Assembly (NCBI GenBank): GCA_977862235.1
Contig: OZ374562.1
Coordinates: 744,001-808,000, forward strand
Origin: Dudresnaya verticillata
Lineage: Eukaryota
Reading direction: 5' to 3'
DNA: 64,000 bases
Position 1 is the stretch's first letter; the number at the start of each line of letters is the position of its first letter. The notes under the pieces were generated by a model, which worked only from the letters and a program-made list of their open reading frames with translations, was not told the DNA's origin and ran no database searches. Below, piece by piece: positions 10,379 through 64,000 of the stretch. Made by a program: the position numbers and the translations under genes.

Positions 10379-13300
10379 ATGGGGAGGAAGTCCAACAGAA
10401 CGAAGAAGATGCCCGTGACAAATGACCGTAATGAAGTCGGCCTGCACCAGCAACAGATTCTGTTCGCCGACCTGCTCGACGGTTCTCTGCTGAAGCATGT
10501 CGATCCGCTGGCCTATGTACCTCTCGCCAACGTGAGGCCGATCTCCAGGTCCGGAGTCGGACGGCTCAAGTGTATGTTCAGAGTATAAGGAGCGGGTTCA
10601 AGTCAGGGGATGGCGCATGCTCCGGAGGCGATAGGATATGTAGCAGGGAGTGACATTACAGGTATTATTGAGCTCACGGGAGTCCTTCGAAAGCATGTAG
10701 GAGATTATTTCCGAAGTACTCGCAACAAGGAATGAACGCACCGTTCCGAGAAGGAGATACAAGAAACCATGAGTTCGAGAGTGTGGCATAGCTGTAAGAC
10801 CAGCTGCGCCACGTGTGCACTGCTGTGCGCATGCTGTCAGCCGGTGGCGCCAAAGCCCACTGAACTGTAAGGGAGTGCGCAGTGGCGCCCACGTGTGCAC
10901 GCGTTCGCGTGTGACACTGAAACTCCCATGTAATTTCTACGTTTATTGTTGTGTAGTGTACAGCACCGTCTAGTGTAACGCCCTGCTGTCCTGCGCGCCG
11001 TGCACACGCACTCCGGCGCAGAGCCGTTGAGTGCGTGACACGCGCGCGCGCACTCTGGCGTCGAGCCGTTGAGTACGTGTGGACCGTTTCGCCCACGCGC
11101 GCCCCCGGGTTACCGTTACCCGTACGCGTCGACGCGTGTTGGGGCCCGCCGGCGTACCTCCCGGGTTGGTGCCGCCGCAGGCCCTGTAGTATATCTAGTA
11201 GTCGCCCCCCTGGGCTTGAGTAAACAAGGCAAGCCAGCCTACGCGAGGCTTACCCCTTTCTGCTTTGGGTTTCCTTCCCAGTCCTTCGCCCTACGGCTTC
11301 CCTCTTTCCCTAGCCGCCTAGGCTTTCCTTTTCCTTTCCCTACCGTCGGCTTCGTGCCGCCCCACTACGGGGACGCAGGGATCAGGCCGCTGCCGCCCGC
11401 GTACGGTACGCCCCGCTCGCGCTCAGGCTTCGACGCCGTTGATCCGCGACCGTCGACGGCGCGCGAGGCCGACACCACCGCTCTACCACCACCGCTACCA
11501 CCCTTCGACGGGTCTGGGTGCGACTACGAGACCAGCCGCGCTAGACGTAATTTCGACCTGATGTCTATCCCACAGAGAGGGTTCTGGTATGGTTTCGTAG
11601 ACGGCATGCACCGTTAGGTTACAATTATTGAGCTCATGCATACACAGTACGAGATGTGGAAGACATTCTCTTGGCCGGTTATGCATATCAAGGGCGGGGC
11701 GTCTCTGCAGGGTCTGAAACAGTTTGCAACAAACCAGAACCGCAAACATCAGTTTGCTTGTTATGTAGAAACCACGTTCTTTGACGAACTGAAAGGCCTG
11801 CGTGAAGAAGCCGACAGTCTGCAGGCTGAAGCCAATGGAAAAGGGCCGACAGCGAAAGCAGTTGCCGCTGCCTTTTATGGCGCTTCTCATCTTCACGAGA
11901 ATACAATCAGGCAAACAACCCAGGTTGTACTTAGATTGCATAGATCGGCTGTATATTCTATCGGGGAGATTGCAACACAGGAGGATGTAGACTTTGCGGC
12001 CTCGGTGTCCATTCGAAGTGCTGGGGCTGGAGTTTCCAGGCAACTCGTATTGCCTTCGGTCGACTGCCGAGTCTATCGGAATTTTATCCATGTATCTTCA
12101 CTGAAGTCTGCTACAGTGTTTATGAATGCCAGCCGTTCGCCAGACCGGGTACAGGCCCAGATCTGTGCCTTGTACAGGCTGCGGGAAAGGGCCAGAATGC
12201 ATAATTTCAGACCTGCACCTTACAAGGTCACAGTCGGGGAATTCGACAGAACAATAGACGCGTTGGTAGAGGTTAGAAAGTTCGAGAGTCTGAGGGAGTC
12301 CCAGAACTGGCCTGCAGCTAAGTCCGTTCTGGCGACTATTCTATTGCACTCGCGCAAACTGGACCTGGAGGTTATGTCGAATCGTGGGAACAGTCTCATA
12401 CTGAAGTCGATTCTGACCATGTACCGTGACAGCTGCCCGGGGGAGGCCCCGCATAAAATCGACAAATACGACCGCAGATTAGAAGTTGCGCAGGCACGAT
12501 CGTCGTCTAGCACAGATCCAACGCATCCTGAAGAAGTGAAGAGCCCTGACAGTCACATGAATCATGTGTCGTCGGGAGTGATCTTGAACAAAAATGCTTC
12601 TAAATCTTCCCCACAGACAGATGAAGAGAAGGCCAACAACGACAACCGCATTTATCCCGACCATCTGGGCTCCACTGCGAAAAGTGCAACTCGGGATGAG
12701 TCCCTTCCCGTCATCAACGACAATGGAGATGACGACGTCGCACCTCTCCTTTTTCACTCAACGGCCACTACAATCATATCAAAAAGATTGGATACTTGTA
12801 AGAGGCTGAACATGGATGATAGAGACGAAGTCGCAACACCGGACTAGATACTGAAAGCGGAAGGCCTCGAGTTTCACCAAATGTGCTGGCAGAGCTACAA
12901 CCAAAAGTACAGTAAAAGCGAGAGCAAACGGTTTGCCTTCATTCTGTCCGAAACCCCGTACGGTACCCCTGCCTCACAGTCTCGAGCGGGGAAATCATAT
13001 GACAACTACCTCAGAACTTCAGAAATGAACAAGTTGGCTGCGTTTTGCAGGCAGACAATCGCGCCGGGTGGTTGGGTGTTCATACTCGTGTCAATTGAGA
13101 CCTTTGACCCCATGAGACAGGCACTGTCAAAGAATGGTTTCGATTGCCCAACGTATGCATTCGTGATTCTGAAGGATACGGGCACTGTTCAGCAATCCAG
13201 GGGCACCGAGAGGCCTCAAAATGGCGCAGATATAGCCGTTTTTGGGAAAGCACCGGGCATGCATCCATCAGGTTCAGAGGCAGACTTGAAGAGACCATAC

Positions 13301-14110
13301 CACTTGTTTAAATTCCAGTATAAGAGGAAGCTCGCATGTATGTCTTCTGTTCCGGTCTTCAAGAAGAAATTGCTGAGACCTCAGACAAGATCGCCGGTTC
13401 TGACTGAAGAAAAGAATGTTGAATTGCTCGCGGAAGTGCTGAAAACGTTCAGCGCAGAGCATGGGCATGTTCTGCACATGTACGCTGGCAGGATGACGAC
13501 CAGAATAGCGTGTGTTGCCACCAGTCGGAAGTGTACATTCATCGGGCAAAATGCCGACACGTTCAGACATATACACGCAAGGCTATCGCGACTGGCGCAA
13601 GAGGCACAACGTCTCACCTAGGCAGCACCGGTGAAGAAAACATGTAATGCTTCCGAGCAGGCGTCTGAAAAGGTATGTGCACCGGACTCAGAACAAGCTC
13701 CCCTGCAGGCGGGGAGCTCAGAGCGTAAACGAGTGTCTTCTGAAGGGGTGTCTGAACATATGGAACCGTTGGCCAAGCTGCAAAACGTCGAGACAGGAGC
13801 AATGCCTGCCAAAGTCACGGGACAGAATGAGAACCAGGGAGAGGGGGAGACGAAGCCCAACGCCGAGAAAATTGTGGGGGAGATGAAGTCGCTCTCTTGA
13901 TTTAGGGATAGCATGCACGGTACTGCGTTTTCGCCCTTTCAAATGTAAGATCAGCATCTCATTGCAGTCTATGCATTCAAAGCGGCGACAAAAAGCTCCC
14001 ATTTCCGGTACCCCTACACGCATCGGGAGGTAGATGGTGAGGCCCCGACAACTTTGGGTGATATCAAAAGCATTTTCGCTAGGGACGTCAATCAGATGGC
14101 ATTAAAATGA
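10379..14110 (+). pseudogene. ParB-like domain + HTH fused to a beta-class N6-adenine/N4-cytosine DNA methyltransferase; split by a solo LTR and nonsense codons
   Basis: Removing LTR 10782-11574 plus one TSD copy restores one continuous frame, interrupted only by stops (10586, 10733, 11615, 12845, 13619, 13898, about 13946). ParB-like motifs: VRPISRSGVGRLK..WYGFVDGMHR..FATNQN..TFFDEL. MTase motifs: FILSETPY (DPPY-like, 12947-12961), IAPGG, EKNVELLAEVLKTFS..VLHMYAGRMTT..AC (motif X-I, about 13410-13520). The true stop is uncertain. Confidence 0.8.
10782..11574 (+). mobile_element. Solo LTR, family A
   Basis: Termini TGTGGCATAG...CTATCCCACA. 5-bp TSD GAGAG at 10777-10781 and 11575-11579. Homologous to 16037-16973 and 52007-52807. 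Strand inferred from a TATA-like box followed by a pyrimidine-rich tract. Confidence 0.93.
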
Positions 14111-16036
14111 ACTAAGGGAACGAGCTTTTAACGCTCATTGACGAATCAACCGAGCCTTTTGAGACTAGCTTGCGCCCCTTCGCTTCGTCTCCTTACAATA
14201 GATCGACACCAATCCTCTGCTAACCATGTCCAAAGCATCCACCATACAACGCGCGCAAATCAAAACAGTCCACTCCGCGTCCGGGAACCCGCTCCAGGTT
14301 ACACCGCGCTCTCTGGTGGCCTGAGAACTTGGCCACGGTTCAAGTTCGGTTGCAAATGGTGTGCTGCGCCCACGACAATACCCACTCTACTGATGCTCGC
14401 TCCTGGTATCGCTTGCTCCACCCCGCGATTCACGGACAGCGTTGTCATCTTCTCCACCTTGCTTTAACCGAGCTTCACGCATGCAAGACCGCGACTGGGC
14501 CGGGTTCGCCGCGCACTTGTGCAGTCGCTTGGACATCTGGGGCCTGCTGCTCGCAGCAGTAGGAAGGCCGGGGCGGTAGCAGCGTAAGCGGGAAACGTAC
14601 AGCAGGAACAATCGGAAATCGCTGAGTCTTGCGCTTCACGTAAGCGTGAGAGAACGCTTCGTAGGCCATGCCTGGGTTGAACATGTCGAAAAAGAGGGCA
14701 CGGCAGTGCGCGCTGTACATTCTGTTTCACCGTGGATTTTTTATAGGTATGTGCTCTCCTCGTACTGGAGAAGGTATTCCGTATTATTGATAATACGATG
14801 ACAGTTCTGATTGCTTCCAAAAGCCGAAAAGCGTTCTGAGAGCTTCCCTTTTTGCACTGCCGAGAACAGCTGTTTCGTTATCGTTGGGCCCGCAAGGAAA
14901 ATATCTGTTGAAAAGCATTACTCTCGTAGAAAATATGAAGCCTTTTTAGATATTCCCGTTCTGGCCCCATCAATACCCACTGAGAATCATTTGACCGAGC
15001 ACTTCCACGAAAAGCTATGTTGTATTATCCATACTGCACTTTTAGTTTCGCGGAGCTTTCCCTTTGCAAAACCTAAACTATTGTCGTGCCCCTGAGCACA
15101 ATCGTCTTGATCCTGACGCTTCTAACCACAATGATTGTGGGTCTCCGCGCGCTTCTCCAGAAAGCCGCAGAATCTCGTCGCCCCCTTGTGTCACGACCCG
15201 CACCTCCGCTCGTGTTTCTCAGATGGTGTGTCCCAAATCAAGCTTGCGGCATATGCTACCTCGGAGCACTACGTTCGTGGCCTGCATAGTGCTATCTCCA
15301 ATTCAGCCCATGGTGATGACAGTGATGCATACAATCCCAGATGTGCTCGCGCACCCTACACAATGCGCCCTGCCTTGCCCTGGGCGCATACCGCTCTCTA
15401 CAGCCCAAGCACAATAGCGCCATGTGACTATGAGAACTGCCGCGTTGCCGTGCCGATCACTCACCAGCACCCGAGCCCGCATGGGCGCGGTGGATATGTC
15501 TCTGTGCGACCCTAAGCGCGAAGATAACGAGCTGAGTGAGGCATACGCGAGAAAACAGTCGTTTTCATGCTCCTCGAGGCTCTCAACGATGTCTAGCAGA
15601 CACGTTGCGGGGTTGTCGACGGCGGAAAGCTTGCCCTACGGCACGTTCTTGCCCTACGGCAAGTTCTTGCCCAACGGCGCGATGACATAGATCGCTACCG
15701 TGCCCCGTGTGCGGGTGCAACGACACGCTGATGAAGACACGCCGCCCCAGCTCGATTCTCATTCTCTGCATCGTCTGGTTCTACCCCGCTTTCGACGCCC
15801 GATACGACAAGAACCGACCTAGCACACTATTATCGCCTATCCTAGCACACTATTGTCGCCTATGGATCCCACGTGCGCAGGCAGACACGGCTTCATTATT
15901 CTGTTCAGTGGAGGTATGCACTGACTGTCAAGCTGCTGATCTCAGCAGGGGCGAAGGTCAATTGTAGCAGAAAAACCTACTTCTGATTACTGCGGATGAT
16001 GGAAGGCTCGAGGTTGTGCAGATAGGACTTGATACA

Positions 16037-16973
16037 TGTGGCATAGACGTCAGGTCGAACTGAAATCTAGCTGCGCTGGTCGATCAGTAGCACCCAGACC
16101 CGTCGAAGGGTGGTAGCTGTGGTGGTAGAGCGGTGGTGTCGGCCACGCGCGCCGTCGACGGTCGCGGATCAACGGCGTCGAAGCCTGAGCGCGCACGGGG
16201 CGTACCGTACGCGGGCGGCAGCGGCCGGATCCCTGCGTCCCCGTCGTGGGGCGGCACGAAGCCGACGGTAGGAAAAGGAAAAGGAAAGCCTTGGAGGCTA
16301 GGGAAAGAGGGAAGCCGTAGGGCGAAGGACTGGGAAAGAAACCCAAAGCAGAAAGGGCAAGCCTGGCGTAGGCTGGCTTGCCTGGTTTACTCAAGCCCAG
16401 AGGGGCGACTACTAGATATAATACAGGGCCTGCGGCGGCACCAACCCGGGAGGTGCGCTGGCGCGCCCCAACACGCGTCGACGCGTACGGGTAACGGTAA
16501 CCCGGGGGCGCGCGTAGGCGAAACGGTCCAGACGTACTCAACGGCTCGACGCCGGAGTGCGCGCGCGCGTCACGCACTCAACGGCTCTGCGCCGGAGTGC
16601 GTGCACACAGCGCGCAGGAAAGCAGGGCGTTCGACCGCCGCTTACACTAGACGGTGCTGTACACTACAAAACAATAAACGTAGAAATTACATGGGAGTTT
16701 CAGTGTCACACGCGAACGCGTGCACACGTTGGCGCCACTGCGCACTCCCTTACAGTTCAGTGGGGCTTCGGCGCCACCGCTGACAGCGTGCGCACAGCAG
16801 TGCACATGTGGCGCAGCTGGTCTTACAGCTGCGCGCGCCACTGCGCACTTCCTTACAGTTCAGCGGGGCTTCGGCGCCAACGGTTGACAGCGTGCGCACA
16901 GCAGTGCACACGTGGCGCAGCTGGTCTTACAGCTGCGCGTGCGTGGCACAGCTGGTCTTACAGCTATGCCACA
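16037..16973 (-). mobile_element. Solo LTR, family A
   Basis: Termini TGTGGCATAG...CTATGCCACA. TSD ATACA at 16032-16036 and 16974-16978. Inverted copy of 10782-11574 with an internal tandem duplication of about 100 bp. Confidence 0.95.
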
Positions 16974-23879: not shown

Positions 23880-24470
23880 TGAGTATTGGCGGTCACATAC
23901 TCACCAGTCTGACTGAGCGAAAAATAGGAGCTAACATGTTCAGTCCGCTGGGGACGGATTTTTTAGCTTGTAATAGGACGACACGTAGTACATCACATGC
24001 GCATATGCTTTCAGGTGAAGTAGAAAGAGGTAACATTGTTCAGAGTATTGATATTGTACTGTATCTGGACGTATAAACAATTCGCAGACATGTTCCTTAA
24101 AATGAACCGTGGTTTGTTTCAAGGAGGTTTCTGTGCACAGAAGCAATGCAATTCCTTCTGCATGGATGACGTGTTCAAACTGTGGCTGAAGTTGGCTGTT
24201 GTACAGTATTTTAACCGGCTTCAGCTACAATATGGGATGAAAGAATAATAAGTGGAAGAGAGAAACGACATATACAGTATGTTCTATAGAAAATCGGGAT
24301 TATTTAATAAGTAGGATAGTGCTTTATGTGATTAGCACTATTATTTTTAATGAACGGGTTTCTGGGGGAAACGATTAGAGGCGGAATGCTAACTGGCAGG
24401 GGCAGGGGAACGTAGTGATGTCCAGATCTTTAGGTCAGGAGTCACAGAATAGAAATGGGGACATGGTGCA
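23880..24470. repeat. Dispersed repeat, direct copy of 53749-54235
   Basis: Shared blocks such as ttctgcatggatgacgtgttcaaactgt and agagaaacgacatatacagtatgttctatagaa. This copy has about 140 extra bp at 23945-24087. Confidence 0.85.
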
Positions 24471-26038
24471 ATGTCTCTCCTGGACGCATGCAAGCTACAA
24501 CACTCCCCCCGTGGCCACCTTGTACGCTATTTTTCCTCTTTTGGAACTATGGTCAGCGTACGTAGGTGACCCAGTTCCACGACATAGGGCCGGACGAAAA
24601 GCTTATGCGGGCCCTTTCCCGGAGGGTCGGAGTAACGCATTAATAGGGCCCTGTGATGGCGGGCCCGTATATGCCTTAAAATGGCCGGCCTGGGTCATTT
24701 TAGCTGTTCCAGAGGAGGGGATACGACTGCAACGACCCGGTCCTGGATAAGGCTTATCCGGCCCCTTTTCGAAAAGTCCCGAATAACCTCTTTTCCGAGC
24801 TCTTTTGGAGATGGCACGTTCAAGGCTTTGTTTAGGCCCTTTTGAGAGCTTGAAGTACTACAGTGCGATAAAGTTGCGCCCTTCTTGGGACTACGTTATC
24901 CCATTTGTGCTGAGTAGGTTCACGCGTTTATCACCTCATTAGTCTATAGTCAGAGCAAAGAAGCAGATCCTTCTGGATGAGTAGTAGCTCGACTGTCTCA
25001 CTGATTCAGAGCATATCTCTCCGGTGCCGGCAGCGTGCTTATCTGAGCCCGAGAGAACCGTCCGCCATCCTATGTGTTCAAAGTTCCAATACTTGCGCGT
25101 CTTCCTCTGATACGGAAGGCAATGACTACGCAAAATCCGTCCTTCCTTCAACAAGCCTCGCTCCTATACTACCTGTATGTATTGCGGAGCTACTCTTCTC
25201 TGAGATAATATATAGATATCTGTATCGTAGAGATCGCCAGAGATTTTCTATCCCTATTCTATCCTAGTAGAAAATAAAAACTTTTCTATTCTAGCGTGCT
25301 ACCAAGCGAATAATGACGTGGAGGATTGGGGGAGCATGTGATGAAAAGAGACTGGTTACGTCATTATGAAATGTATAATGCATGGCGTGCTTACACTTTA
25401 CAAGGGATAGATTCCCTGAAAACATTGTAGATTGCTTGTCACACATGTTTCGAACATGAAACTTTCTCAGTCAGAAGCACAATGATTCTCGGCCGGAATA
25501 GCATCATTCCAGAACTCAGGCGAAATGATACTCTGTTAACGGCAATATGCCGCTGCGAATCCATCCAGTGCGCATTTATCACAGTTATAGTGCAATTCGA
25601 GAGTTTGCCGTACTTGCTACTTTTCAAGGGGCTGGAACAAATACTGCAATTCTCTGTTGCCTCAAAATCCATGCGGGTGCGTTTATAGGGATTGATAGAC
25701 CTGCTTCTATGTGTACACATGCGCACATACTCAATTTCATCAAATGCTTGTGGAGACATGTCCCGACCTAACAGTGAAACGTAAGTCGAAAAGTACTTTC
25801 CATGAACGCACACATACAGAACGCGACGATCTCAAATACATAATCTGGGGTAAGTCTCATTCTAGATTTATGAGTTGTGCTTGCTCCGCAGAAACGTTCT
25901 GAGATACTTCTCACAATACATGTCTTTGTTTTGAGTCAATGTCAGGCGAGAATGTCACTGAAGCCTATGTGTCGATACTAAACGGCACTTCTATATATAA
26001 ATACATGAGAAATACAGAGAACTCTATAGGTAAGCACT

Positions 26039-27734
26039 ATGGATGAATCTTCTGCTTCAGGGTGCGTACACGGATACGGAACAGAACTACTCGGAAGACA
26101 TCTGGAAGAAGCCAGTATAGGGAGACTGGTGAGTTTAGGAAGAAATATGTACCCATTCTACCGAGTTGCTCCGATGTCGGCCTCGCTTTCCATCTTAGAA
26201 GGAGCAATTTCGCCCTATGACTCGAATATTTTGCGATGCATGTGTGCGCTCAGCGACCCGAGGAGAGGGCTAAAGACAAAATGGAATTGCAAAGAGAAGG
26301 ATATCGGTCGTTTGATTTCGCGTTGATCCAGAAGCGGTGGTAGAAGAAGATCAGAGTTTAAAGGGATGAGAAACAGAACTTCGAAGAAATTTGATTGTCC
26401 GGCTGCTGTTTCAACCGTTCCTTTGTCTCTCAGGAGTATTGAAACGAAGTCATGGAGTAAATAATCTAATAGTTATTGACTGTCAAGGGTGCAAAGAAAA
26501 AGGGAAGAAATGTTTTCTGTGGTAAAATCCGTTCGGACTGCACATCGCAACCACGAGGTTGAGGAGTAAGGAACTGAGCGTCTTACTCTGAGCAGAACAG
26601 CGGACATTTTTGCCCATGAAGGGGTACGACATGCCGTTTCCGTATTTTTGAACATCTATCCGGGCGGAAAGGGAACGATCATAAGAGCTAGCACATACCT
26701 CCAGGAGAGATTCCCGGAAATTTCAGTTCCTGAATCGGTGCTTCGGAAATGCGTCGCGGAGCTGAGAAAACATGGAGACGAAGTTAATGGAATTGTCAAT
26801 TCCCTACGTTCGATGGAAAACAACGGTGTCGTTGAACATTTATCGAAAACACTGAGCGACAGCACAAGAATACTAACAACTGCGCTTTGGGCCTACAGTG
26901 GCTCCAGGGAGCTCCAAAGGTGTGATGAACATTTTTTCTGGGATTCAACTCACAACTTGACAAGATATGACTACCGATTGTCAGCTTTCATTGCTGCAGA
27001 CTCGGAGTCAGAGTCAAGATCGGTCATGTTTGCTTTCAACCTCCATAAGATAATTGAAGCTTTTCAAAGAATGTTGGCTGCCTATTCTACAGCATTTAAA
27101 GGAAGACTTACTAGAGCGAAATTTACAGATAGTGATGAGGCTATTCATGTATCTATTCTAATCCCACCCGGTTCAGGAAGTTTTAGAATCTTCTATGTGT
27201 ATATCACTTGTTCGATATTAATGGCAAGAAAAAGGTTCAGGGACTTGTACCTACTGACGGGAGCTTCTTCTGGACTGGATTTAGAAAATCATTATCTATG
27301 TGCCTTCAATGCACAATTACAGAGATGCTTGAACGGCTGTGGAGAAAGATGCTGAACGAGTCGCTCCCGATTGGAATCGGAACTTACAAGGCTGGAAAAT
27401 ATCTCGCGAAACACGTCTGGGCGGAAAGAGAACAGTGGTGCGTTGCACATTTCCGAGATATTCTTACTCTTGGAGTTTCGACAACCCAGCGGTCTGAAGG
27501 ATGGCATGAATTCTTGAAGGCCGTTTTTAAACTCAAAGCATCTGAATGGAATGCCTTCACGATTGTACATTATCCTCAAACGACAGTTCTGAGAAGAACG
27601 AAGAAGAAAAGAGTTGTCATACAGGTTCCAGCCGCTTCAGGGAGTTCTATTTTGACGTACGCAAGGCTAAGAAAACTTTTGATGTTGCTAGGGGATTCAA
27701 GCTTCGCATGTATACAGCTGAAAAGAGGTGTCTA
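26039..27734 (+). pseudogene. Mutator-like (MULE) transposase relic
   Basis: RTSKKFDCP..HRNH (FAR1/WRKY-like finger), FFWDSTHNLTRYDYRLSAF..D, FTDSDEA, LCVYHL, W..F..LGVSTTQRSEGWH. Confidence 0.85.
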
Positions 27735-27852
27735 GTGCCCAGCGATGACGTTTTCTGCATCAGGTTCAGAAGTAGACCGATTTTAGAGGTCAAAAGGAGC
27801 CCGCTGCAAATAGGGAACACAGCCTCTACCCTTAACGCAGTGGTGATATTCA

Positions 27853-28555
27853 TGTGGCATAACGAATACTCCACAATGGCCCGAAGACGTCTCGCACTGT
27901 AAGCGATGGCCTCGGAGCCGAACGGGTGGCCTCGTAGCCAAACGGAGAACGAAGAAAGGAAAAGGGGGTAGCGTGGGAGAGCGGGGCGATCGACGCCGGG
28001 GACACGGTGTCAACGAATACGTGTGCGGAAAGGAGAACTGAGAGCTAACGATCACCGGGGATAATTGATGGTTCGCGTCGCTATTGAAAGCAAGACTCGA
28101 CCATATCCGCGAACACGAACTCGAAGACACCGAAAACGAAGAAGAAGGCGTTTACCGTAGGCTCTGAGGTCCGGGCGCTAGTCGCGTACCGGGAACCCTC
28201 GGAAGTCGTGCCAGACGACTGTATTAATACTAATACACGAGCAATAATACGCGTCGACCCGGGAGACAGTTCGCTCTCGGCTGATCCGTAACGGCCTCAG
28301 AGCCCGCGAACGGTAGTCTCGCGTATTGTGGCGGTTGCGTATCACGCCATTAATGCACACGGAGGCGCACGCGCGTCGTGGGCCTCGGAGCCGTTCGCGC
28401 CGGAAACAAACAGGAAACACGGAGGTGTCAGCAATTCGAATGCAGTAGCGCACTGTAAGGCGAATGCCATCGTGACGCGCGTGGTCACGAAGTCACTTCG
28501 AAATTTGTATTCCTCAATTATTTTCAAGTAAACCACGGAGTGAATTTGCGACACA
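27853..28555 (-). mobile_element. LTR fragment, family B
   Basis: Starts TGTGGCATAAC and is collinear with LTR 59548-60264. The far terminus is eroded and no TSD is visible. Confidence 0.85.
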
Positions 28556-28592
28556 CCTGAGGACATTCCAATCAGGCCAACTACTTCCGCGT

Positions 28593-29087
28593 TTGCATGC
28601 CGGGTGGAATACACTTCGCATCCAGAACAATCCCAGAAATGTCACCCAGAATTGGCTTTCGAATCATGGAGAGAAAAAGGTTCCAAGTGTGTTGGAAATG
28701 GTTGAGGCTGCAGGAAATTGGGTCAAATCACCAATGGAAGCGATTGACGAAAAGCAGTCGTCGGAGAGCATGAACCATGCTTGGACGTCAACTCAGCGGA
28801 CAGACACTCAAGAAATCAAATTCCGATTTATACTTTCTGTTCAAAAGGAGAAGTGGCAGATGAGGGCGACTCCAAATACATTTGCTCGCCACGGCACAGC
28901 TCAGATTGAGCTGGGAAAACGTGGGAGTGTTTTGGAATCAAGATCTCAAATGGTACAGGGTAAAGGTGTCTATTTCAACAAAGAAAGAAGGCACTTTACT
29001 ATTGGCAATTATGACGACGGTAATGTGGAGGAAAATAATAATATGGCAACTCATAAATGGAGGCTGGTTACTCATTATAAAGATTAA
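28593..29087 (+). pseudogene. ORF remnant ending in a Tudor-like domain, downstream of and on the same strand as the MULE transposase
   Basis: Joining two frames at 28921-29060 gives VGVFWNQDLKWYR.KV..FNKERRHFTIGNYDDGNVEE....HKW. Confidence 0.65.
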
Positions 29088-29319
29088 CCCCAGTAACAAG
29101 TCGCACCGCCTTCTGCGGGGGCGGCGCTGCGTGCCGCTAGACCCCGCGCCTTCGGCGCGGGACGGCACTGAGTGCTGGTATGATAATCCCCGCGCCGAAG
29201 GCAGGCGCGTGGTGTAACGGCGGTCGCGCGCACAAAAGTAAAGGGCCAAATTAAGAAATCAGGCGCACAGCAAAGGTGTCGGCTGTAAGGAGCACAATCC
29301 CGCCAATCAATGGTGAGCT

Positions 29320-53748: not shown

Positions 53749-54235
53749 GAATATTGGCGGTAACAAAGCTCACGAGTCTGACTTAGCGAAAGGTAAGAGC
53801 TCACATGTTCAGTCAGGACATGTTCCTTTAAACGAACCGTGGTTTGCTTCAAGGATGTTTTCTGTGCACCGAAGCAGGGCAATTACTTCTGCATGGATGA
53901 CGTGTTCAAACTGTAGCTGCAGTTGGTTGTTATATAGTATTGCAACCGACTTTAGCTACAATATATATGATGAAAATAATAAGTGATAGAGAAACGACAT
54001 ATACAGTATGTTCTATAGAATATCGGGATTATTGAATAAGTAGGATAGAACTTTGTGTTATTAGTACCATTCACAAGACCACGTTAAACAAGTATTAAAA
54101 TCAAACATCACAATTCTGTTTTATGAACGGGTTTCTGGAGAAAAAGGATTAGAAGCGGAAAGCTGAGTGGCAGGGGGACGTAGTGATGTGTAGATCTCCA
54201 GGTCAGGAGTCAGAGGTTAGAAATGGGGTAATGGT
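53749..54235. repeat. Dispersed repeat, direct copy of 23880-24470
   Basis: Collinear sequence similarity over about 480 bp. Confidence 0.85.
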
Positions 54236-54559
54236 CCTGTAATGAAATCATTAATTTTTCTACGGGCATATTCATGCTGACGAACCATGGTTATGTTTTA
54301 TGTAGTTGTATTCACAATGGTTCTCAGTGAGCATTTTCTTCTAACTTTAGTCAACGGTCGTTTTAAGTTTTAGAGGCAGTCCTCTCCTGCCTATAAGTAC
54401 CGCATAGTTCTCTCTTATTGTACCCTCTTACTACTGAGAGATACAACAATTTCATCTACACAACACACTCTTTTCTACTATGCTCAGTAAATCTACTGTT
54501 CCTCTGATACCGCTGCTATTGCCAACTTGCTACTGATCCAAACAGCCTTCTTTTATTGT

Positions 54560-55289
54560 TATGATCCCAGGCTCAGCATCAGCGTATCTGCGGACGTGCC
54601 CAAGGTTTTCTTGACATATACAAAATGTACATTGAACAGATGGCAAAGGCAATCAAGAAGAGTACTCAATATCTGTTTCTTTATGGAATTCTTTCCATAA
54701 CAGGCTCCCAGACGCTAACGCAAACAAAATACCCACGGGACTTCGTGGTACAATGCTTCAGTCCCAGCTTTATGGAAGAGCAAAAGATCTATGCAAATCC
54801 ATTCCAGATACTGAGATCCAATCCGCTACGGGCTTAGAGGCTGTGGTGCATGCTGTATACACAGGAAATGCACTCTCGGTTGTAAGTGAAGTTTACTAAA
54901 ACTTTATTGCCCTATTGTGTACCAAGCGCGGAACCACGGAGACACACAAAAATTTCGAATCACGATTCGGCGCTCAAGTTTCCATATTTAGTGCTGTCTC
55001 CAGTACAACAAAGCTCTCAGAAGCCCCTTCTGCTTCTATGCTACTTGAAAAACCTACCGTGGATAACGGTCAAAGAGTTTATGTTCTTGCAGCAGCTTCG
55101 AACAGCACAAATACAGCTCCGACTGCTCAACTGATGATTCTCTCGATTCAATTTCATACAAGATAGTAGCTTCTGCTGCAAGCCAGTGTGACCAAGTCAT
55201 GACCGAGACTATTCTTCCCCTGTCTGCAAATGCTGTGAACACGCAGTTCAAAAGAACGAACTTCCCAAGAAATCGCAAAAGGCTTACAC
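54560..55289 (+). pseudogene. gag: Ty1/Copia gag relic
   Basis: LQSQLYGRAKDLC..AVVHAVY..LSVVSEVY*NF..LL..KRG..E..KNFESRF.AQ..MLL..VD..QR..VLAA; same strand and upstream of the Copia pol. Confidence 0.65.
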
Positions 55290-56487
55290 TGTAGTGTAAC
55301 GCCAAGGAGGCCACCGAATGGAAGCAACCTGGCGGGCCAGGCGAATGAGCGGCCCAACCCACAGAAGATACTTGGCCAATGGAGCCACAACGCCGGCGCA
55401 CGGACGACGGTGATAGCGCGCAAATACAACACGTGGCCGCCGAGTGCACACGTAGCGCACACGTGGCCACTTACAACACCGAAGTGCACCACGTGGCCCG
55501 CTGTACGCGTATGATCTGATCTGAGGCCAGACACAAATGGAAATTGGATTTGGCCGCAAGCGAAATCAAAGGGAAGACAGTGGAAAAACCAAGGGAAAAT
55601 CTAACTCGCATGGCCCACCACTAACGCATAAGTACTTGGTTTAATCTCGCAAGGGCCCTATATTGTCCCGACGCTGGAACACCAGTAGATATTATGGCCG
55701 ACGGGGAGTAACCTCGGCCACTAACTGTTGAACAGCTTTAGATTAGCTCAGATTGCCGATTTTGAGTCTACTTATCTGGCCACATACCACGGCTTACCCG
55801 AAAAGGTACGAAGCCGTCCCGCTAGAGGTCGGGAGTAAAGTTAGCAACTGAACCCCCTACTTGGCCATTTTCTGTCCTCATCGCAGATCTGGCCACGACT
55901 TCGTCTGCGCGCTCCCGCTCTACCATGCTTGCTACCGGCGCGCAGGTCCGTTCTACGTTCTGGCCAGTTCCTACGAAATCCGACAGGTCTTTTGGTCTTC
56001 TTGGGGTCTCGTTTTGGCGCCGCACCCGGTGGTGCTTTTCGAGATAGTACATACACCTGATTAGCTCGCAGACTTCAAAGCCGCAGCAAATGTCGTAAGT
56101 TTCACAAATTCGGACACTGGCACTCTGATCACACAGATGACGGTAAATGAAAGCCTGGAGTGAAGTGATGCAAAATCGAACCCCCAACCACCGAAGAAAA
56201 CCGTGGCCTTCAACATGCGATATCTACTCGATTCCCCCATTGAGATAAGCGAAGCCTTTACAGGCCCGTTACTTGATGTGATGAAGGTGGTCCGTATAGT
56301 GGTCTAGGCATGTCCGAGTTTACGATACTGTAGTACATTATCCTCCCGGACCGGGAAGGCAATCTGGGCCCTATTCCGTAACAGCTGCAGTTTGTACCTT
56401 TTGGCAATACGGTGCAGGGCACAACTCCAGTGAGGCAAGGAGAATTATCGGATCGGTTACTTTAATGGCTCGCACTGATTATACTAA
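55290..56487 (+). mobile_element. LTR (family C) lodged in the Copia element, no TSD
   Basis: Starts TGTAGTGTAA and ends TTATACTAA (degenerate inverted terminus). Non-coding. Copia coding sequence stops and resumes at these points. Confidence 0.55.
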
Positions 56488-57853
56488 CCTAGTGTCTATT
56501 CGACAGCTAATCATTGAAGGCTCCTCGCAATGCATTATCGACCGTAATATCACGAAGGATTGTGACATTGTTCATGTCGGCGATAACAGGCTCGTTATGC
56601 CAACATCTGAAGATTCGATTGGTCTCCAAGACAATTGATTCCACAGATACATACCGTATAACGTATTCCTACCGCACAGTTCCAACCTGTCATCCCGTGT
56701 CACGAACAAGTTCTATTGTGCCACTGCTCAGATCAACCAAAACCAAAACCAAGGCACTCTTCCCTTTGGAGACATCAAGAAGATTGTTGATAAGGTCCAT
56801 CAACACGTCTGTGAACACTCTTCTCATTCTGATATCAAGATATTGCTCCAGCGAAACAACATTTGGAATGCTGAAGTGCAGAAATATCTGTCCTGTGTCC
56901 TGGACAGATGCTCAAGTTGTTCAACTACTTCTCGACACTAAGAAACCCGGAAGGTCTCACTAAGCTCCATGAGCAGGAACGTTGACGAAGTTGTATGCAT
57001 TGATAATTTCCACCTTGATACGAACTATGTGTTTCGTCTCATGAACTCTGCTTCAAGATATTCTACCGGCGATGTTATAAGCACCATGACTATGACGGAA
57101 GTTATCAATTCTTTCGAATCTCTATGGATAACATCGTTATGGCGCGAGATGTGTTCTATTTGACCAAGCGTTCAACAACACCGAGTTCATACATTATCTG
57201 AAAAGTCAAGACATTGAAGCCCGCCCTATACCTCCGCGTCGCCACAACAATAATGCCATTGAATCGAAGCACAGAGTTATTCGAGATGTCTACCTACGAT
57301 TGAAAGAAGGATGTACAAATTGCTCTGCTGAGCACCAAAACATCCTAGTGCAGCAGGCAGTACGAATATCAAATGATGTATGTTCTGCTCATGAGTTGGC
57401 GAAAGGCTATACGAGATGAATAGAATCCGGAGAATTTCCTGCACAAGTTCCGGAAGAAATTGTCAAGGCCCATTATGACCTCATGCCTAAGCGAAAATTG
57501 ACCCGCATCCTTCACTGCAAGTCAACTGCTGATATACCTGCAATGTTGGAGATACCGCACAAGTTTATATCAAAGAACAAAATGCCAAGCGCGGCAAGTG
57601 GTCATCTCCGAAGGTGATTCTATCGTTCGATAAAACTTCTGGAACCATTTCAGTTCCTGTAAAACGTGCACGCCAAGACAAAGCGGCTGTTGAAGATGTC
57701 CGTCTTGCCCTACCTGTGGATACACTAGGCAGTTCCAAGAATCATTTGATGCTCTCTCCAAAAGTCTGGATGAATGCATTGATGATCTCTGTTCTAAAGA
57801 AGAAGTTCCATCAAATAACGAGCTTGAGACTACCACTATCGAGGAGGTGGGAT

Positions 57854-57929
57854 ACGAAAACGATGACGGAGATATTCTCAGCTCAAAACCAACGGTGTGA
57901 GCTGAGAATATCTCCGTCATCGTTTTCGT
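57854..57929. repeat. Perfect 32-bp inverted duplication inside the Copia coding sequence
   Basis: acgaaaacgatgacggagatattctcagctca-12 nt-tgagctgagaatatctccgtcatcgttttcgt. Confidence 0.95.
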
Positions 57930-57950
57930 TGGTTGGTGACTGTTGGTGAC

Positions 57951-58897
57951 TGTAGTGCAAAACGTCTATGACGGAAAACACTGTCCGGGCCGTTCGTAGC
58001 CCGGCCGGTAGCTCGCCTCTGGCGGATGAGTTCCGAGGGCGGTGCACGGGGGTAGAGTTTCGTAACACACCAAGGGCGGACTGTAATGGCCCGAAGCGGT
58101 ATAAATGGAAAAGGGAAGCGTCGTACTGACAGAGAAAAGGGGAAAAGAGGAAAACACACGTCCACAGCGGAGTCGATGAGTGCACGGTAGTCCGGCACGT
58201 ATCCCACGCTAATAGCGGCGATGTACGCTCTTGAGCGCAGGTGGTGCAGAACCACTGAGCTTCTAAGAGGAGAAACAAAAGGGGATACACGTCAAAGACG
58301 GAAATTGACGGGGAAGCGCGATCGTCACAACGCGTAGCCTACGTGGTTAGCGGCGGTGATGCTAACAAGCGAAGCGGCGAAGTGTAATGGCAGACCGGGT
58401 CGGCGGGGGATTACTGAGTGGTCTCCCGACGGGTTTCCTATGTAGTACTGCTACTGCTAGAGCGACGGAGGCGTTGGAACGCAGGACACGTGTCATCCCA
58501 GCGTGGGTCTGACAAGTGCCCTGGAATTCAGCCACGCTCCTGACAGATTTGTCTATACCGCGGCGAACGTAAAGCCGATGCTTACACTTACACGTGGGTA
58601 CATGTCGCGCTTACAGAAGCGTACCACGTGATATGGTCAGCCGCATGTTGGCCCGGTTGCGCCTCGGCTGGTGCCGAGTGTGGAACGTGTCCGCGTATAC
58701 CATGTACACCGCGTGCCACCCATAGGAAGCCGGCTTTGCCATAATCCACGCCTAGGCCGACATTTCCCGGGAAGTTAAAGCGGGTTCGCGCCCGAATCTA
58801 GATCCTGAACGGCGTTGGCGGCGGAGCGCCGAGGGCGGTAGAGGTCCATCCAAGACAGTATAACTGCGCCTAGGGCGATATTGAAGTTAGCCCTATA
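57951..58897 (-). mobile_element. Solo LTR (family D) inserted in the Copia Tudor-coding sequence
   Basis: TGTAG...CTATA termini with TSD GTGAC at 57946-57950 and 58898-58902. Its removal restores VGD-AIDVYWPLDD. Strand is tentative. Confidence 0.8.
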
Positions 58898-59547
58898 GTG
58901 ACGCCATTGATGTATATTGGCCCCTCGACGATATGTTCTACACTGAAAAGTGGCCACAATTAACGAAGATAACAACCAGTACAACATTGATTACGATGAT
59001 GGTGGCAAAGAATATCTCAAGCTATCGGATGAGACATGGAGCTATAGCTCGGATGAAGCAATAGCAACCAACAACGCACGAATATCGATTCAAACGCTCA
59101 CAAGTTCTCTGCAAGACGTTCTTGAGTCTTATAATCTTGCCTTCGGTCACAAAGATTTTACGGGCTACCAGGCGCAAGGGCTACCAACGTTTCCCTTGTT
59201 AAATGATTACAAAAAAGAAGAAGAGGCCTTGAAGAAAACAGTCAAGATGGTCCATGCTTCTGATATTCGAAAGCATGGAAATGTCATCACAAGCCATGTG
59301 ATATACAAAATTAAGAATAATGATGATGGCTCGATGAAAATGAAAGCACGCATAGCGCCACATGGTAACAAAGACAAAGAACGCTTTCAGTTGAAACCGG
59401 ACTCTTCAACCTGTCCGCCCACTGGTAATGGAATTCTGTTGTCCCTCGCAGCTTAGTTCAAGTGGTTCTTGGCCAAGATAGATTTTAAGAGGGCGTTTCT
59501 GCGAACAGGAGAAGAAAAGCGATACGTCTACGTCGTTCCGCCACGAG

Positions 59548-60264
59548 TGTGGTATAACGAAGTTCACGGAGACGCAGGGACGTCTCGCACTGTAAACGAT
59601 GGCCACGGAGCCGAATGTGTGGCCTCACAGCCTAAGGGAAAACGAAGAGACGAAAATCGGCGGTAGCGTGGTAGAGCGGGGTGACCGACGCCGAGGACCA
59701 CGGTAGCAATAAATAGGCGTGTGGAAGGGAGAACTGCGAGCAGTCGAGCACCGGGGATGATTCCATGTGCGCGGGGCTATCGAAAGCGAGACTCAACCGT
59801 ATCCGCGAACACGAACTCGAAGACACCGAACACGAAGAAACAGGCGTTTACCATAGACTCCGAGTTCCAGACGCTAATCGCCTACCGGAAACCCTCGGAC
59901 ATCGTGCCAGACGGCTGGCTAAGTACAACTACATGCGCACGAGTACGCGTCAACCCGGGACACGGCTCGTGCTCGGCTAATTCGTAACGGCCTCGGAGCC
60001 AACGAACGGTTGTCTCACGTAGGGTGGCGGTTACGGAGTACGCCAGCAATGCATACGGAGGTGCGTGCGCATCGTGGGCCTCGGAGCCGTTCGCGCAGGA
60101 AACAGCGGGAAAACACGGAGGTGTCAGCGATTTCGTACCTGGTGCGCACAGCAATGCGAATGCCTTCGTGGCGCGCGCGTTTACGGAGTCACTTCGAAAT
60201 TCGTATTTCTCGATTATTTTCACGGAGACCACGGAGTCGATTAGCGCACATCTTCTATACCACA
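59548..60264 (-). mobile_element. 3' LTR (family B) of an LTR element inserted into the Copia RT
   Basis: Termini TGTGGTATA...TATACCACA. It interrupts YVVPPRE. No TGG primer-binding site follows on +; a weak purine tract gatgacggggccg precedes it on -. Confidence 0.88.
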
Positions 60265-63200
60265 CGGCCCCGTCATCAGGAGCGAACGTCCTGGTCGCGG
60301 GTTACGAATCACAAATTGGCGTGGCCCGGTTTCCCTCGGAGGAGCTCGTGTTGAGCCATCGGAGTGGCAGAGCGGTGGTGCATCGAGCTGAGACCACGTT
60401 GTCGCGCAGAGGTGCATCGGGGCTCACGAATTTGAATTCGGATCCCGTATGCGATGGTGCCTTTGTATTGGTTAATCACGGAGATATTTAGTATACGTAA
60501 AACGGGCTAGGGCTTCGGCGCCGTCCGCCGACGCGTGCGCGCGGATCACGGAGACGGGGTGCGAGCCGCGTGGGTTATTTCAACTTCGTGTTTCGCTGGA
60601 TTCGAGTCCATTGATTCTCCGGTCATCGTGCACACACGCGCAATCGCTTCAGCTCCTTGGCTTTCGGCCTTCGCGGTCCCGTCTGCTTCTTCGTGTGCGT
60701 CTTTTCGTCCGCGCTCATCTATTTTCGCATCGTTCGCTCCGCTCCGTGGCGTTCTTGTTGCTGCTTCGTTGGCCTCGGTGGTTTGCGGTGGTCGGTTGTG
60801 GGTCTCGGGTCTCGGTGTTGTGGCACGTGCTGTTGGTCCTCCGTGAGTGGCGTCTGGGTTGACTTCGTGTCACGGGTTCTTCGATGGCGGACAAGGGTCG
60901 CACGAAGGGAACCGAGTCCCATGACGAGCGTATCGAGGCTACTCGTCGTCGCCTCGATGTTGAGCTCACGGCTGCTGCGGTGCACGTGTCCTCGGAGCCT
61001 ACGCAGGGTGTTGCGGGTCCGTCCGAGGGCTTCGGGTCCTTTGTGGGCCCTTCGGGTGGGGACTCCGAATACGTACCTCGGACTCTCGCAATTCCACACG
61101 TCGTGGATATCGGGGCCTCGGGGGCAGTGGACCTTGAAACTCCCTACGCGCGTTCGGGCCGCTCGAATCCGCAGTTCTTAAATCGCGGCTAGCGTTCGAG
61201 CCATTCGTTAGGGATCCGAAGTTGTTCACGAAGGATGAGGGTGCTCTGAGGCTTTCGTCATCGCAACTATTCTTCGCACGGGATCAGTTCGCGGTCTCCT
61301 TGGGTACTTACGAAGAGGCCGCCGTCTACGATGGCCGTATCCGTCCGGATCTTGCTCGCTTCCGTGCGTTCTGCGACGGTCGCGATGAAAACGGAGTGGG
61401 TATCTTTCACTTATTCTGGCCCCGTGGCCCCATGTATCTGACGCCGCTGGGTATTCCGTGTGACGTCTCCTAAATGACCACGGTCGACGAGGTTGCTTTT
61501 GTAGATTCACGCGGGCGTGTGCTACTGACAGAAGGTCCGGGTATCTCCGTGGATTCTCCGCTTACTGCGGTTGCTCGCTTTCGTGATTACCCGGAGTTCG
61601 TGTCCGCCGTGGGAAACGTGTGCCGCCACGTAGACACGATTTATCGCATCCTTGGAGGGGCTTCCTCTCCGACCTTTTGCATATAGTGGAAGATAGCTTT
61701 ACCACGTCGGCCCTGAGAAACTTGAAATGGGATAGACATGCATGGTCACTTAGGCTATTGAACATATCGGTGCTGGAAACCGGGTGCTATTTCGCGGCGT
61801 GGGCACGATGCCAGATCGCGTGGATACTAATTCGCGTCTCGATGACCGCGTGCCTCTGAGCATGTTTCCGAGTTCGTTTTGGCTCGATAACCTGAGTATT
61901 CGGACCCCCGAGGGCTTAGCTTAGCCGTCCCACCTCCGGGGGTGATTCGGTACTTCAGTCACGTTGTCAACATGTGTACGGAGCATACGAAGAAGTTTTT
62001 CGTGTGTTTTCGAGACTCCGAATATCGCTTCGGACTTGGTCGCGCGTTGATATCGGATGTCACGCAACGTCAATACGTATGGGTACTTGCGGAACTTCGT
62101 TCATGATGGTGGTTCGAAGTTGTTTCCGAGGAAGGCGGGTACCCGGATCTTTCGCTCTGATGCTCAGATCGTACGATGCCGTTCCCGAAGATGTTCGTGA
62201 TTTCCATCGAGGCTGCGGATCGGAGGGAGCTCCAGTCGACTCGTCGCGATTTCCAGACGGGACAGTGGTCCCAAGTGGTCGGGCACGACTTGGGATCCGG
62301 GGCCTGATTCGATTGGCGTCACAACCGACCCTCACGAGGGGGCGCGGTCCGCGAGTCGATTCCTTTTCGCATCCGAGTGCCGCGGTTCGTGCCATCGGAG
62401 GCGAGATTTATCCTTGCCGCGTGTTCCCCGCTCCGTAGCTCCGATGTGTTCGCCACCGCTGACTCCGGGATCAGCGCTCGGCACCAGGGCCGTTGCTTTG
62501 GCGCCGAGCGCTTCGGGTTCCTCGGCCGCGAGTCTCGAGATGCTCTGTCCCACGAATATTCGTACTCTCGACTCCGTGAGTAATGCGTGTAGCGAAACGG
62601 GCATCTCCCCGATGGGACGTTTCGGCAAGTGCTGGAACACTTCGGCGGAAACTTCCTTCCCACAGCCACGGAGGTGAGTCGCCTTCGTAGGAAGCTTCGG
62701 GATCGGGATGCGGAGATAGAGGACCTTCGTCATCGTATTCGGGACCTCGAGTTGAGCGGTAAGCGTAAGCGTCGGCGCGAAGATTACGGTTACCCGAGTT
62801 ACGATGCTTCGCGTGGGTCTGGCTCCGGGGGCCCTTCGGGCTTCGGACCCAGCGGTGGCGACGGATCGATGGTCACCGTGGACAATCAGAGACATCGGAT
62901 CCGTATGCGCCGAACTTTCTTCGAGTGACTCGTGACGAAAATGGAAACGATCCTCGTAACAACCGGCCTTAAGAATAATCTAATCCGTATGGTGTGGTAC
63001 GTAGTGGTAGCGCCGTGGCTTCTTCTTTTAGCTTCATAGCTACTTAGTTTCTCGTTTTGTTATCGGGCTCCTTGTTATTGGAGCTCACGGTGGAGGGGTC
63101 TCGGTCTCGTTGTATCGTCTCGAGGAAAACGTTTCTCTTTCTCGACCCTTCTCTTGCCTCGTAGCAGTAGTCACAAAGTTGTTAACATTTTATCTTTGGC

Positions 63201-64000
63201 ATAGTAGCTTCTCTTTATCAGGCTTCATGCTCAAGTGTGCGAATTGAGACTTCTTCGTAGAGCGGCTTCGTTTTTCGTGATGCGTGTGGCGTTGATTAAG
63301 AATAAAATTACGCGTGTTTCCTTCGAGGCGTCGAGTCATCGAGACTTCGTAATTCTGCGTGCACGGCCCTCTCCTCAAGACGAAGGCGTCCGCGGCGGTG
63401 TGATTCGTGTGATACGTATGTCCGGGCAGCCCGCAGCGCTGCGGAGGGGTCTCAAAGTCTTCGGGGAGCAAGTCGCGTGAGCTCGCTGGCTTTTGAATTC
63501 GAGTTGCGGCGGATGCGCACGGGCGCGGAAGGAACGTATAGTAACGCGATATCGAGCACCGAGGCATGAGAGAGGAGTGCGCGAGTCGAACTAGTGAGAA
63601 ATCCGTGGCATTTTGCGAAGGCGCGTCGTGCGTCTAAAAAGGGAGGACTCTGTGGCTCCGGCAAGGGAGTGAGGAGGCGCGTGCGGTGCTCCGAGGCAGG
63701 CGATCGAGCGATGTTGGCGTGATGCGTGGGTTGCGACTGCGGAGTGCGTCTTGCGGGTGGCATCGGCCTCGATCTATTACGTACGGCGCGTATGACAAGT
63801 TAAGTATGGTGCACAGTGTCCGTTCGTCGCGGTGTCAGCCCTGTGATTCGAGTTCCGCAGTGCAACCATGTGCGCGTACGAGCCGGCGGCGGATATCGCG
63901 AAGCTTGTTGGGTCGACCACCACACTGATGGTCGATACCGCACGCTTTCGTGACCAGCAACTTAGCGGTGGCATCGTGGCGAACGAATTCGGTGACGCAG
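60265..64000 (-). mobile_element. 3' internal region of the family B LTR retrotransposon, running off the right edge
   Basis: GC-rich sequence contiguous with the LTR. The Copia RT does not resume within the window. Confidence 0.6.
60884..62928 (+). pseudogene. Large antisense ORF of the family B element, with a C-terminal coiled coil and basic NLS-like motif
   Basis: Chained ORFs 60884-61192, 61222-61473, 61474-61686, 61620-61859, 61974-62438, 62629-62928; ends EVSRLRRKLRDRDAEIEDLRHRIRDLELSGKRKRRR. Confidence 0.6.

Follow-up and report, generated by a model that had tools for sequence, protein, structure and literature searches.

A PDS5C/RDM15-type Tudor domain behind the integrase of an apparently undescribed Copia retrotransposon clade, and its predicted role as a histone reader

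To our knowledge, the choice of insertion sites by Copia retrotransposons is largely unexplained outside yeast. For plant Copia elements, the accounts accessible to us report a bias to H2A.Z chromatin, without a reader encoded by the element.

According to the accessible parts of the published descriptions, the chromoviruses of the Ty3/Gypsy group have an integrase-linked reader that was proposed to direct insertion (PMC12477314, PMC2774666). They show the Gypsy order RT-RH-IN and a chromodomain associated with repressive marks, whereas the clade described here has the Copia order, a reverse transcriptase (RT) of the RVT_2 family, and a Tudor domain, the closest solved relative of which reads H3K4me1. 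The CoDi-A elements of diatoms are also Copia, and their integrase has a putative histone reader at its C-terminus; this reader is reported as a chromodomain, which by description sets them apart from the present Tudor domain (PMC2774666). In Gypsy-10_Ec32 from Ectocarpus, likewise an LTR retrotransposon, the integrase end bears a Tudor domain; the element was called, in the text available, the first reported transposable element with a Tudor domain (PMC12477816). Compared by description, it is a Gypsy element of a brown alga in which the Tudor domain ends the polyprotein, whereas the present clade belongs to Copia, has an internal Tudor domain, and comprises dozens of families. The initial annotation of the locus knew of no described Tudor-bearing Copia clade, and none was found in the openly accessible papers searched; the accessible text of a red-algal genome preprint (10.1101/2025.02.11.637652) does not mention Tudor either. 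That claim now has to be read beside the Tudor-bearing Gypsy element and the chromodomain-bearing CoDi-A, both already in print. The Tudor domain is real and clade-wide and, for Copia, apparently undescribed.

The locus lies in the window, by which we mean the whole 64,000-nucleotide stretch of DNA analysed. It is a dead copy from a distinct Copia clade, with many stops and frameshifts, and the argument therefore rests on its intact relatives. A tblastn comparison with those relatives gives the domain order gag-PR-IN-RT, which is the Ty1/Copia order. A probable 5' LTR remnant (54258..54556, + strand; limits approximate, 5' end lost or diverged) is the sole LTR evidence in the window, the 3' part of the element being cut off; in run X1, the depth of the related contigs that match from 54258 onwards (2883 and 2649) is about double that of the internal region (1399), which is not to be taken as copy number. 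The broken 5' part of gag (54561..55289, +; tblastn with P0001 residues 1 to 237, 56% and 38% identity) is followed by a solo-LTR-like insertion within gag (55290..56051; 762 bp, TG...CA, TACAC on both sides), which the relatives skip. The gag zinc knuckle, the protease, and the integrase zinc finger and core lie at 56067..57536 (+; P0001 residues 250 to 746, 31 to 64%) in tblastn frames +3, +2, and +3, the integrase being interrupted by several stops and frameshifts. The C-terminal SH3-like barrel of the integrase lies at 57548..57730 (+; P0001 residues 755 to 815, 66%); a beta barrel at the integrase end is also seen in the model of P0006 (residues 78 to 128), and one relative weakly matches Pfam SH3_11 (E value, 0.03). 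A helix and an acidic linker (57721..57885, +; linker conservation, 0.24) lead from the barrel to the Tudor domain. A local rearrangement at 57854..57929, with a perfect 30-bp inverted repeat (57854-57883/57900-57929), is not found in the relatives, and the rearranged stretch just before the Tudor domain spans 57886-57945. Behind the Tudor domain follow a short linker (59046..59110, +) with an integrase/RT protease site predicted from motif resemblance, and the N-terminal part of the RT with one stop (59111..59546, +; P0001 residues 889 to 1088, 61%; the relatives match RVT_2). The RT is truncated by an unrelated inserted element (59547..64000), and the relatives differ past 59547. The surroundings of the Copia copy are transposon-dense DNA.

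The Tudor domain (57942..59045) is itself split. Its first three codons (57942..57950, +) overlap the left target duplication at 57946-57950, and a solo-LTR-like insertion absent in the relatives follows at 57951..58897 (947 bp, starting with TGTAG and ending with CTATA, with GTGAC at 57946-57950 and 58898-58902); its GC content is 0.57, versus 0.44 in the Copia flanks. Strands 1-2 are encoded in frame +1 at 58898..58944 (+; cage Trp at 58918 and Tyr at 58939; family profile E value, 7e-6). Past a frameshift, strands 2-5 are encoded in frame +3 at 58947..59045 (+; 8e-11), where the cage and contact residues are Tyr at 58992, Asp at 58998, Glu at 59010, and Glu at 59031. Gly at 59004 sits at the position of RDM15 Asp645, which is thus not kept, leaving six of the seven contacts. 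The initial annotation had read 57951-58897 as a solo LTR. The insertion with its 5-bp duplication stands; no second copy was found within the window and the end is TA and not CA, and its solo-LTR status is only likely. The 1-nt deletion proposed near 58945 is borne out by a frameshift between 58944 and 58947 that is missing in related contigs. As for the reading frame said to run into the RT, the frame +3 piece from 58947 does so; the window holds no continuous integrase-Tudor-RT frame, and a single polyprotein of this kind is observed solely in the intact relatives. The two insertions, at 55290-56051 and 57951-58897, are unrelated to each other; both start with TGTAGTG and both have 5-bp duplications.

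When the family Tudor profile was compared with all six-frame pieces of the window, the two larger Tudor pieces were the top two matches. With X inserted at the breaks to join the pieces, the family profile gives the segment 78 bits, compared with 8.1 for the best of 200 shuffles; a profile made from 43 domains of non-family proteins gives 54 bits. The unjoined 3' piece matches the Pfam families Tudor_5 (E value, 3e-4) and PTM_DIR17_Tudor (0.009), both below the cut-offs. Contigs about 93% alike, taken from two public runs that belong to separate studies, cross from 57885 to 58898 with neither the insertion nor the frameshift, and a related contig of 2,965 bases spans gag to RT.

A search with the Tudor-RT piece of the window returned 35 proteins, 30 of them with RVT_2 above the cut-off (E values down to 1e-23); in the relatives, rve precedes RVT_2. 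A Pfam Tudor family is matched at an E value of ≤0.05 in 24 of the 35, the cut-off of PF21743 being passed by 7, and no chromodomain match was found among them at the same E value. The intact relatives encode gag-PR-IN-Tudor-RT-RH in single open reading frames of 1,420 to 1,660 residues. Since selection by the Tudor domain was to be avoided, a second search used the RT/RNase H of P0001 alone and yielded 73 proteins, 57 at 46 to 75% identity and 16 at 24 to 33%. The Tudor domain is present in 49 of the 57 clade members found in this way and absent in 8, and it was found in none of the 16 distant proteins. The possibility raised at the outset, that intact family members would lack the segment, is thus not what the relatives show. 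In a library at 50% identity, 270 relatives of the query reach an E value of ≤1e-10. One clade member comes from the red alga Gracilariopsis chorda, and on this one record the hosts are probably red algae; of 155 pattern matches in a metagenome scan with P0001, none was confirmed as a relative.

In the RT/RNase H tree (80 rows, quick search; 13 of 93 left out for short cover), 66 rows form one clade (SH-aLRT 100), with 53 Tudor-bearing rows, 5 fragments starting behind the Tudor domain, and 8 rows without it. The latter, several of which are full open reading frames, make up one nested subclade (SH-aLRT 100). For 31 chosen long proteins, a tree uniting all Tudor-bearing rows was rejected (AU p 0.01; integrase plus RT/RNase H with the linker excluded, LG+G4, long outgroup branch). 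The simplest reading is a Tudor domain in the clade ancestor and one loss, the absence in the nested subclade likely being that loss. The Tudor-less proteins P0030, P0034, P0059, P0061, P0066, P0068, P0069, and P0075 have short conserved linker motifs of their own at the place of the Tudor domain, possibly a peptide-type targeting signal.

The best PDB match for the domain of one member is the Arabidopsis RDM15/PDS5C Tudor with H3K4me1 (PDB ID 7DE9; E value, 4.8e-9). With a 20-row profile, the same structure is found at 1.8e-19 and the next match at 7.8e-5; weaker matches are the Tudor domains of SMN, LBR, and PHF20. The AlphaFold model of P0006 is a five-strand barrel (pLDDT 93 to 97), for which the top Foldseek match is again 7DE9 (TM 0.86, rmsd 0.8 Å over 52 columns). 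The two domains share the fold and the seven peptide-contact positions, which the accessible text on RDM15 gives as the cage residues Trp616, Tyr623, and Tyr641, the monomethyl-selecting Asp643 and Asp645, and Glu647 and Gln654 for H3R2 (PMC8184781). In the family, the cage columns hold W in 61/63 (Trp616), Y or F in 62/63 (Tyr623), and Y or F in 64/64 (Tyr641). The remaining contact columns hold D in 64/64 (Asp643), D or E in 55/64 (Asp645), E in 61/64 (Glu647), and E or Q in 62/64 (Gln654), with Asp itself at the Asp645 position in just 43/64 and Glu replacing Gln654 in 60/64. The full aromatic cage is kept in 60 of the 63 complete domains and all seven contact positions in 50; P0056 is a natural member that lacks the cage. 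The profile behind these counts was seeded by a pattern demanding aromatic residues, which gave 56 domains, and the other 8 came by profile; the seeding bias is small, because of these 8 and because Tudor-less members give no match at all. RDM15 is a host chromatin protein for which H3K4me1 binding has been shown, whereas the binding by the clade's Tudor domain is predicted and its position 654 is mostly Glu (PMC8184781, as far as that text describes RDM15).

Mean column conservation is 0.57 in the Tudor domain, compared with 0.54 to 0.62 in the integrase, 0.62 in the RT, and 0.24 and 0.34 in the flanking linkers. The linkers of the clade contain no PHD. The family domains are 40 to 47% identical to plant PDS5 Tudors, the best named plant matches being annotated as PDS5B-like, and the best non-family single domains are those of P0240 (79 bits) and of plant PDS5 proteins (75 bits). 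P0240, a protein of 350 residues with four tandem Tudor domains, matches the family domain more closely than any other non-transposon protein and is a candidate for the donor type. Judged by sequence and structure model, the domain behind the integrase is a PDS5C/RDM15-type Tudor with a predicted methyl-lysine-type pocket. This makes the MSH6/PDS5-type assignment of the initial annotation more specific and agrees with the aromatic cage that it had described; the search that might have returned no Tudor match at all returned 7DE9 as the best PDB match in both sequence and fold.

The nearest Copia relatives recovered bear GalEa-type motifs, and GalEa is described, in the parts of the papers available, from red algae (PMC3587641, PMC5445492, PMC5029228). 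The clade is separate from these GalEa-motif proteins (SH-aLRT 100), none of them a named GalEa element. RT/RNase H identity is 24 to 33% across a long branch, and a Tudor domain on one side stands against a GalEa-like cage-less barrel on the other. The GalEa motifs (CX2CX4HX4C, DTGC-type protease, KARLVA, TRPDI) were not found in 14 clade members. Instead, the knuckle ends with His in 11 of the 11 matched, the protease motif is DDGAP, and a KARLVA-type motif and TRPD were each found in 0/14; fungal GalEa elements are likewise described, in the sources as far as accessible, to depart from some GalEa motifs. The GalEa primer site TGGTAGCAGAGC after the 5' LTR is absent from 54530-54600, which belongs to a decayed copy. 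A Met-Gly-Pro/Ser start is found in 11/14 clade members, which presumably fits an internal tRNA primer site of the copia/Ty5 type overlapping the start codon.

In seven of nine GalEa-motif proteins, the slot of the Tudor domain is taken by a different barrel without a cage. This five-strand barrel of Tudor/SH3-like fold, with a Gly-Arg-Ala-Gly-Lys motif, lies just before the RT in P0077, P0078, P0080, and P0082-P0085, and has no Pfam match. Its single-sequence model (pLDDT 83) gives 7DE9 as the top Foldseek match (E value, 0.019). The VIA comparison gives a Z of 7.7 to 7DE9 (rmsd 1.9, 56 aligned) and of 8.1 to PHF19, values that are common for small barrels; identity to 7DE9 is 11 to 12%, and the hhalign probability to the family Tudor is 5%.

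We lean towards the reading that the Tudor domain of the clade, likely carried on the mature integrase, is a predicted binder of methylated H3K4 through which the integration complex would be held at chromatin with that mark; H3K4me1 is the most likely form. Binding of a methylated histone tail is predicted and steering of insertion is likely. The Tudor domain would derive from a host chromatin protein. The protease would cleave the polyprotein downstream of it, as proposed because a Ty1-site-like motif follows the Tudor domain, and the mature integrase would keep the Tudor on a flexible acidic arm. This acidic linker may allow the Tudor domain to reach nucleosomes during integration by the core, and with H3K4me1 as the presumed ligand, integration near H3K4me1 nucleosomes would result in biased insertion. 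The motif in question, a small residue with Asn, recurs before the gag knuckle and by eye persists in Tudor-less members, and resembles the Ty1 protease sites described in the accessible text of PMC6952103. A strict regular expression for the site matches downstream of the Tudor position in only 13/28 members, and co-variation of the protease-site motifs, by eye and by regular expression, is only suggestive. Counting against targeting, 8 members persist without a Tudor domain and the window copy sits in transposon-dense DNA. In the parts of two preprints available, PDS5B Tudors are reported to have lost H3K4me1 affinity (10.1101/2025.05.08.652912), and the MSH6-Tudor is reported as not seen in red algae and Chlamydomonas as lacking gene-body H3K4me1 (10.1101/2024.10.15.618488). 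No red-algal H3K4me1 maps were found in the literature, and the accessible text of 10.1101/2025.06.06.658275 holds no red-algal term.

The domain may be a real reader of something other than H3K4me1, be it another methylated histone site or a host protein with methyl-lysine or methyl-arginine, and would then serve targeting to other chromatin or nuclear retention. The same cage in single Tudor domains is described to read several marks (PMC8184781, in the text available), weaker matches point to SMN, LBR, and PHF20, and the family varies at the Asp645 and Gln654 positions, so that the choice of methyl state may differ. We regard this as rather unlikely, if to be taken seriously, as 7DE9 stands far above all remaining PDB matches, and 50/63 domains retain both the acids that select for monomethylation and the positions of the H3R2 pocket. 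Still less probable in our view is a Tudor domain that stays with the RT or an uncut polyprotein and binds RNA or DNA, helps in particle assembly, or serves as a decoy that diverts host silencing. The integrase/RT cleavage site is predicted from motif resemblance only, and since a barrel without a cage occupies this position in the GalEa-like elements, whatever the slot does may not depend on a cage. A role without a ligand pocket, however, leaves the invariant Asp643 and the near-invariant cage unexplained, and the protease-site-like motif lies downstream of the Tudor domain, on the side expected if the mature integrase keeps the Tudor as proposed above.

The same weighing applies to the origin of the domain. 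We reject, as very improbable, a Tudor-like segment that arose by duplication of the SH3-like barrel of the integrase, and a chance or artefactual join is refuted. The family Tudor does align with the family integrase barrel over 37 columns at an hhalign probability of 51%, but its similarity to integrase barrels does not exceed that to host Tudors, the window segment scores on the profile of non-family Tudors as given above, the segment is unbroken in the intact relatives and in two independent runs, and both fold and contact residues agree with 7DE9. That the reader was gained once is less certain. In P0315 and P0325, the integrase end is GalEa-like (best match P0086; E value, 1e-16), and the integrase barrel is directly followed by a Tudor domain of the same type that exceeds the Pfam cut-off; in P0315, the RT lies behind it. 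An integrase tree of 18 rows, from which four outgroup and three clade rows without an anchor were left out, places both proteins outside the clade; joining them to the clade was not rejected (AU p 0.20), so that one and two Tudor origins are not separated. The initial annotation had proposed a convergent gain at the integrase C-terminus. The position of the reader on that side holds, and a single convergent gain is perhaps too simple and in doubt because of this second Tudor-bearing lineage and the GalEa-like barrel in the same slot. These two observations, with 7DE9 as the top Foldseek match of the barrel, make it possible, though we hold it tentatively, that the Tudor was not newly captured at the base of the clade and is an older module of this Copia branch, which some lineages have retained as a reader and which has decayed or been exchanged in the GalEa-like ones. 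Against such an age stand the low identity of the cage-less barrel to 7DE9, its low hhalign probability and its commonplace Z, and an AU test that fails to separate one origin from two. Unless selection was strong, the family Tudor is also too similar to plant PDS5 Tudors to have had a separate history of great age. A poorly resolved Tudor tree (44 domains, 58 columns) does not reject one origin of the 24 family domains (AU 0.68); one row labelled as host in this tree, P0325, turned out to be a retrotransposon. Across 46 members, Tudor and RT identity are weakly correlated (rho 0.13; 7 of 500 permutations as high).

If the preferred reading of a chromatin-tethering Tudor holds, the repeated capture of chromatin readers known from Gypsy would also include Copia, with this Tudor as the third type of reader, and the clade would bear on how seaweed genomes grew. 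Since the reader has a solved, ligand-bound homologue, the prediction of H3K4me1 can be made at the level of residues, and the nested subclade that lost the Tudor domain provides a natural control. A wider picture, which we put forward with considerable doubt, is that the elements of an undescribed Copia clade themselves encode a reader of H3K4me1, which directs them to gene-associated and not to silent chromatin, that the slot is a reader socket repeatedly filled, swapped, and emptied, and that two Copia lineages and a Mutator-like element of the window captured the same Tudor type.

This Mutator-like element, a decayed transposase at 26000-29100 (+) with a weak Pfam MULE match (E value, 0.003), has another Tudor-like segment, also frameshifted, at the 3' end (about 28915-29075). 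The segment reaches 28 bits with the family Tudor profile and again with the non-family one, with shuffles at 8.4 at most; its 3' piece gave no sequence match in the PDB, and no contigs were found in the two runs. A DNA transposon may carry the same reader type, the membership of the segment in the transposase frame being putative. The Gypsy pol at 926-5169 (+; RT, RNase H, and integrase, with a long low-complexity tail) gave no match to a reader domain. The Mutator-like element is interrupted by a piece of about 700 bp (27853-28558) that is 80% like the start, over its first 700 bases, of the element at 59547-64000; the latter is GC rich and has open reading frames to which Pfam gives no identity. 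Terminal inverted repeats of about 800 bp (93 to 95%) at 10782-16973 enclose open reading frames, one of which (12848-13621) matches a DNA methylase (Pfam N6_N4_Mtase; E value, 1e-5). Copies of a dispersed repeat, 76 to 90% alike, lie at 23881-24467 and 53749-54236, the second just upstream of the Copia copy.
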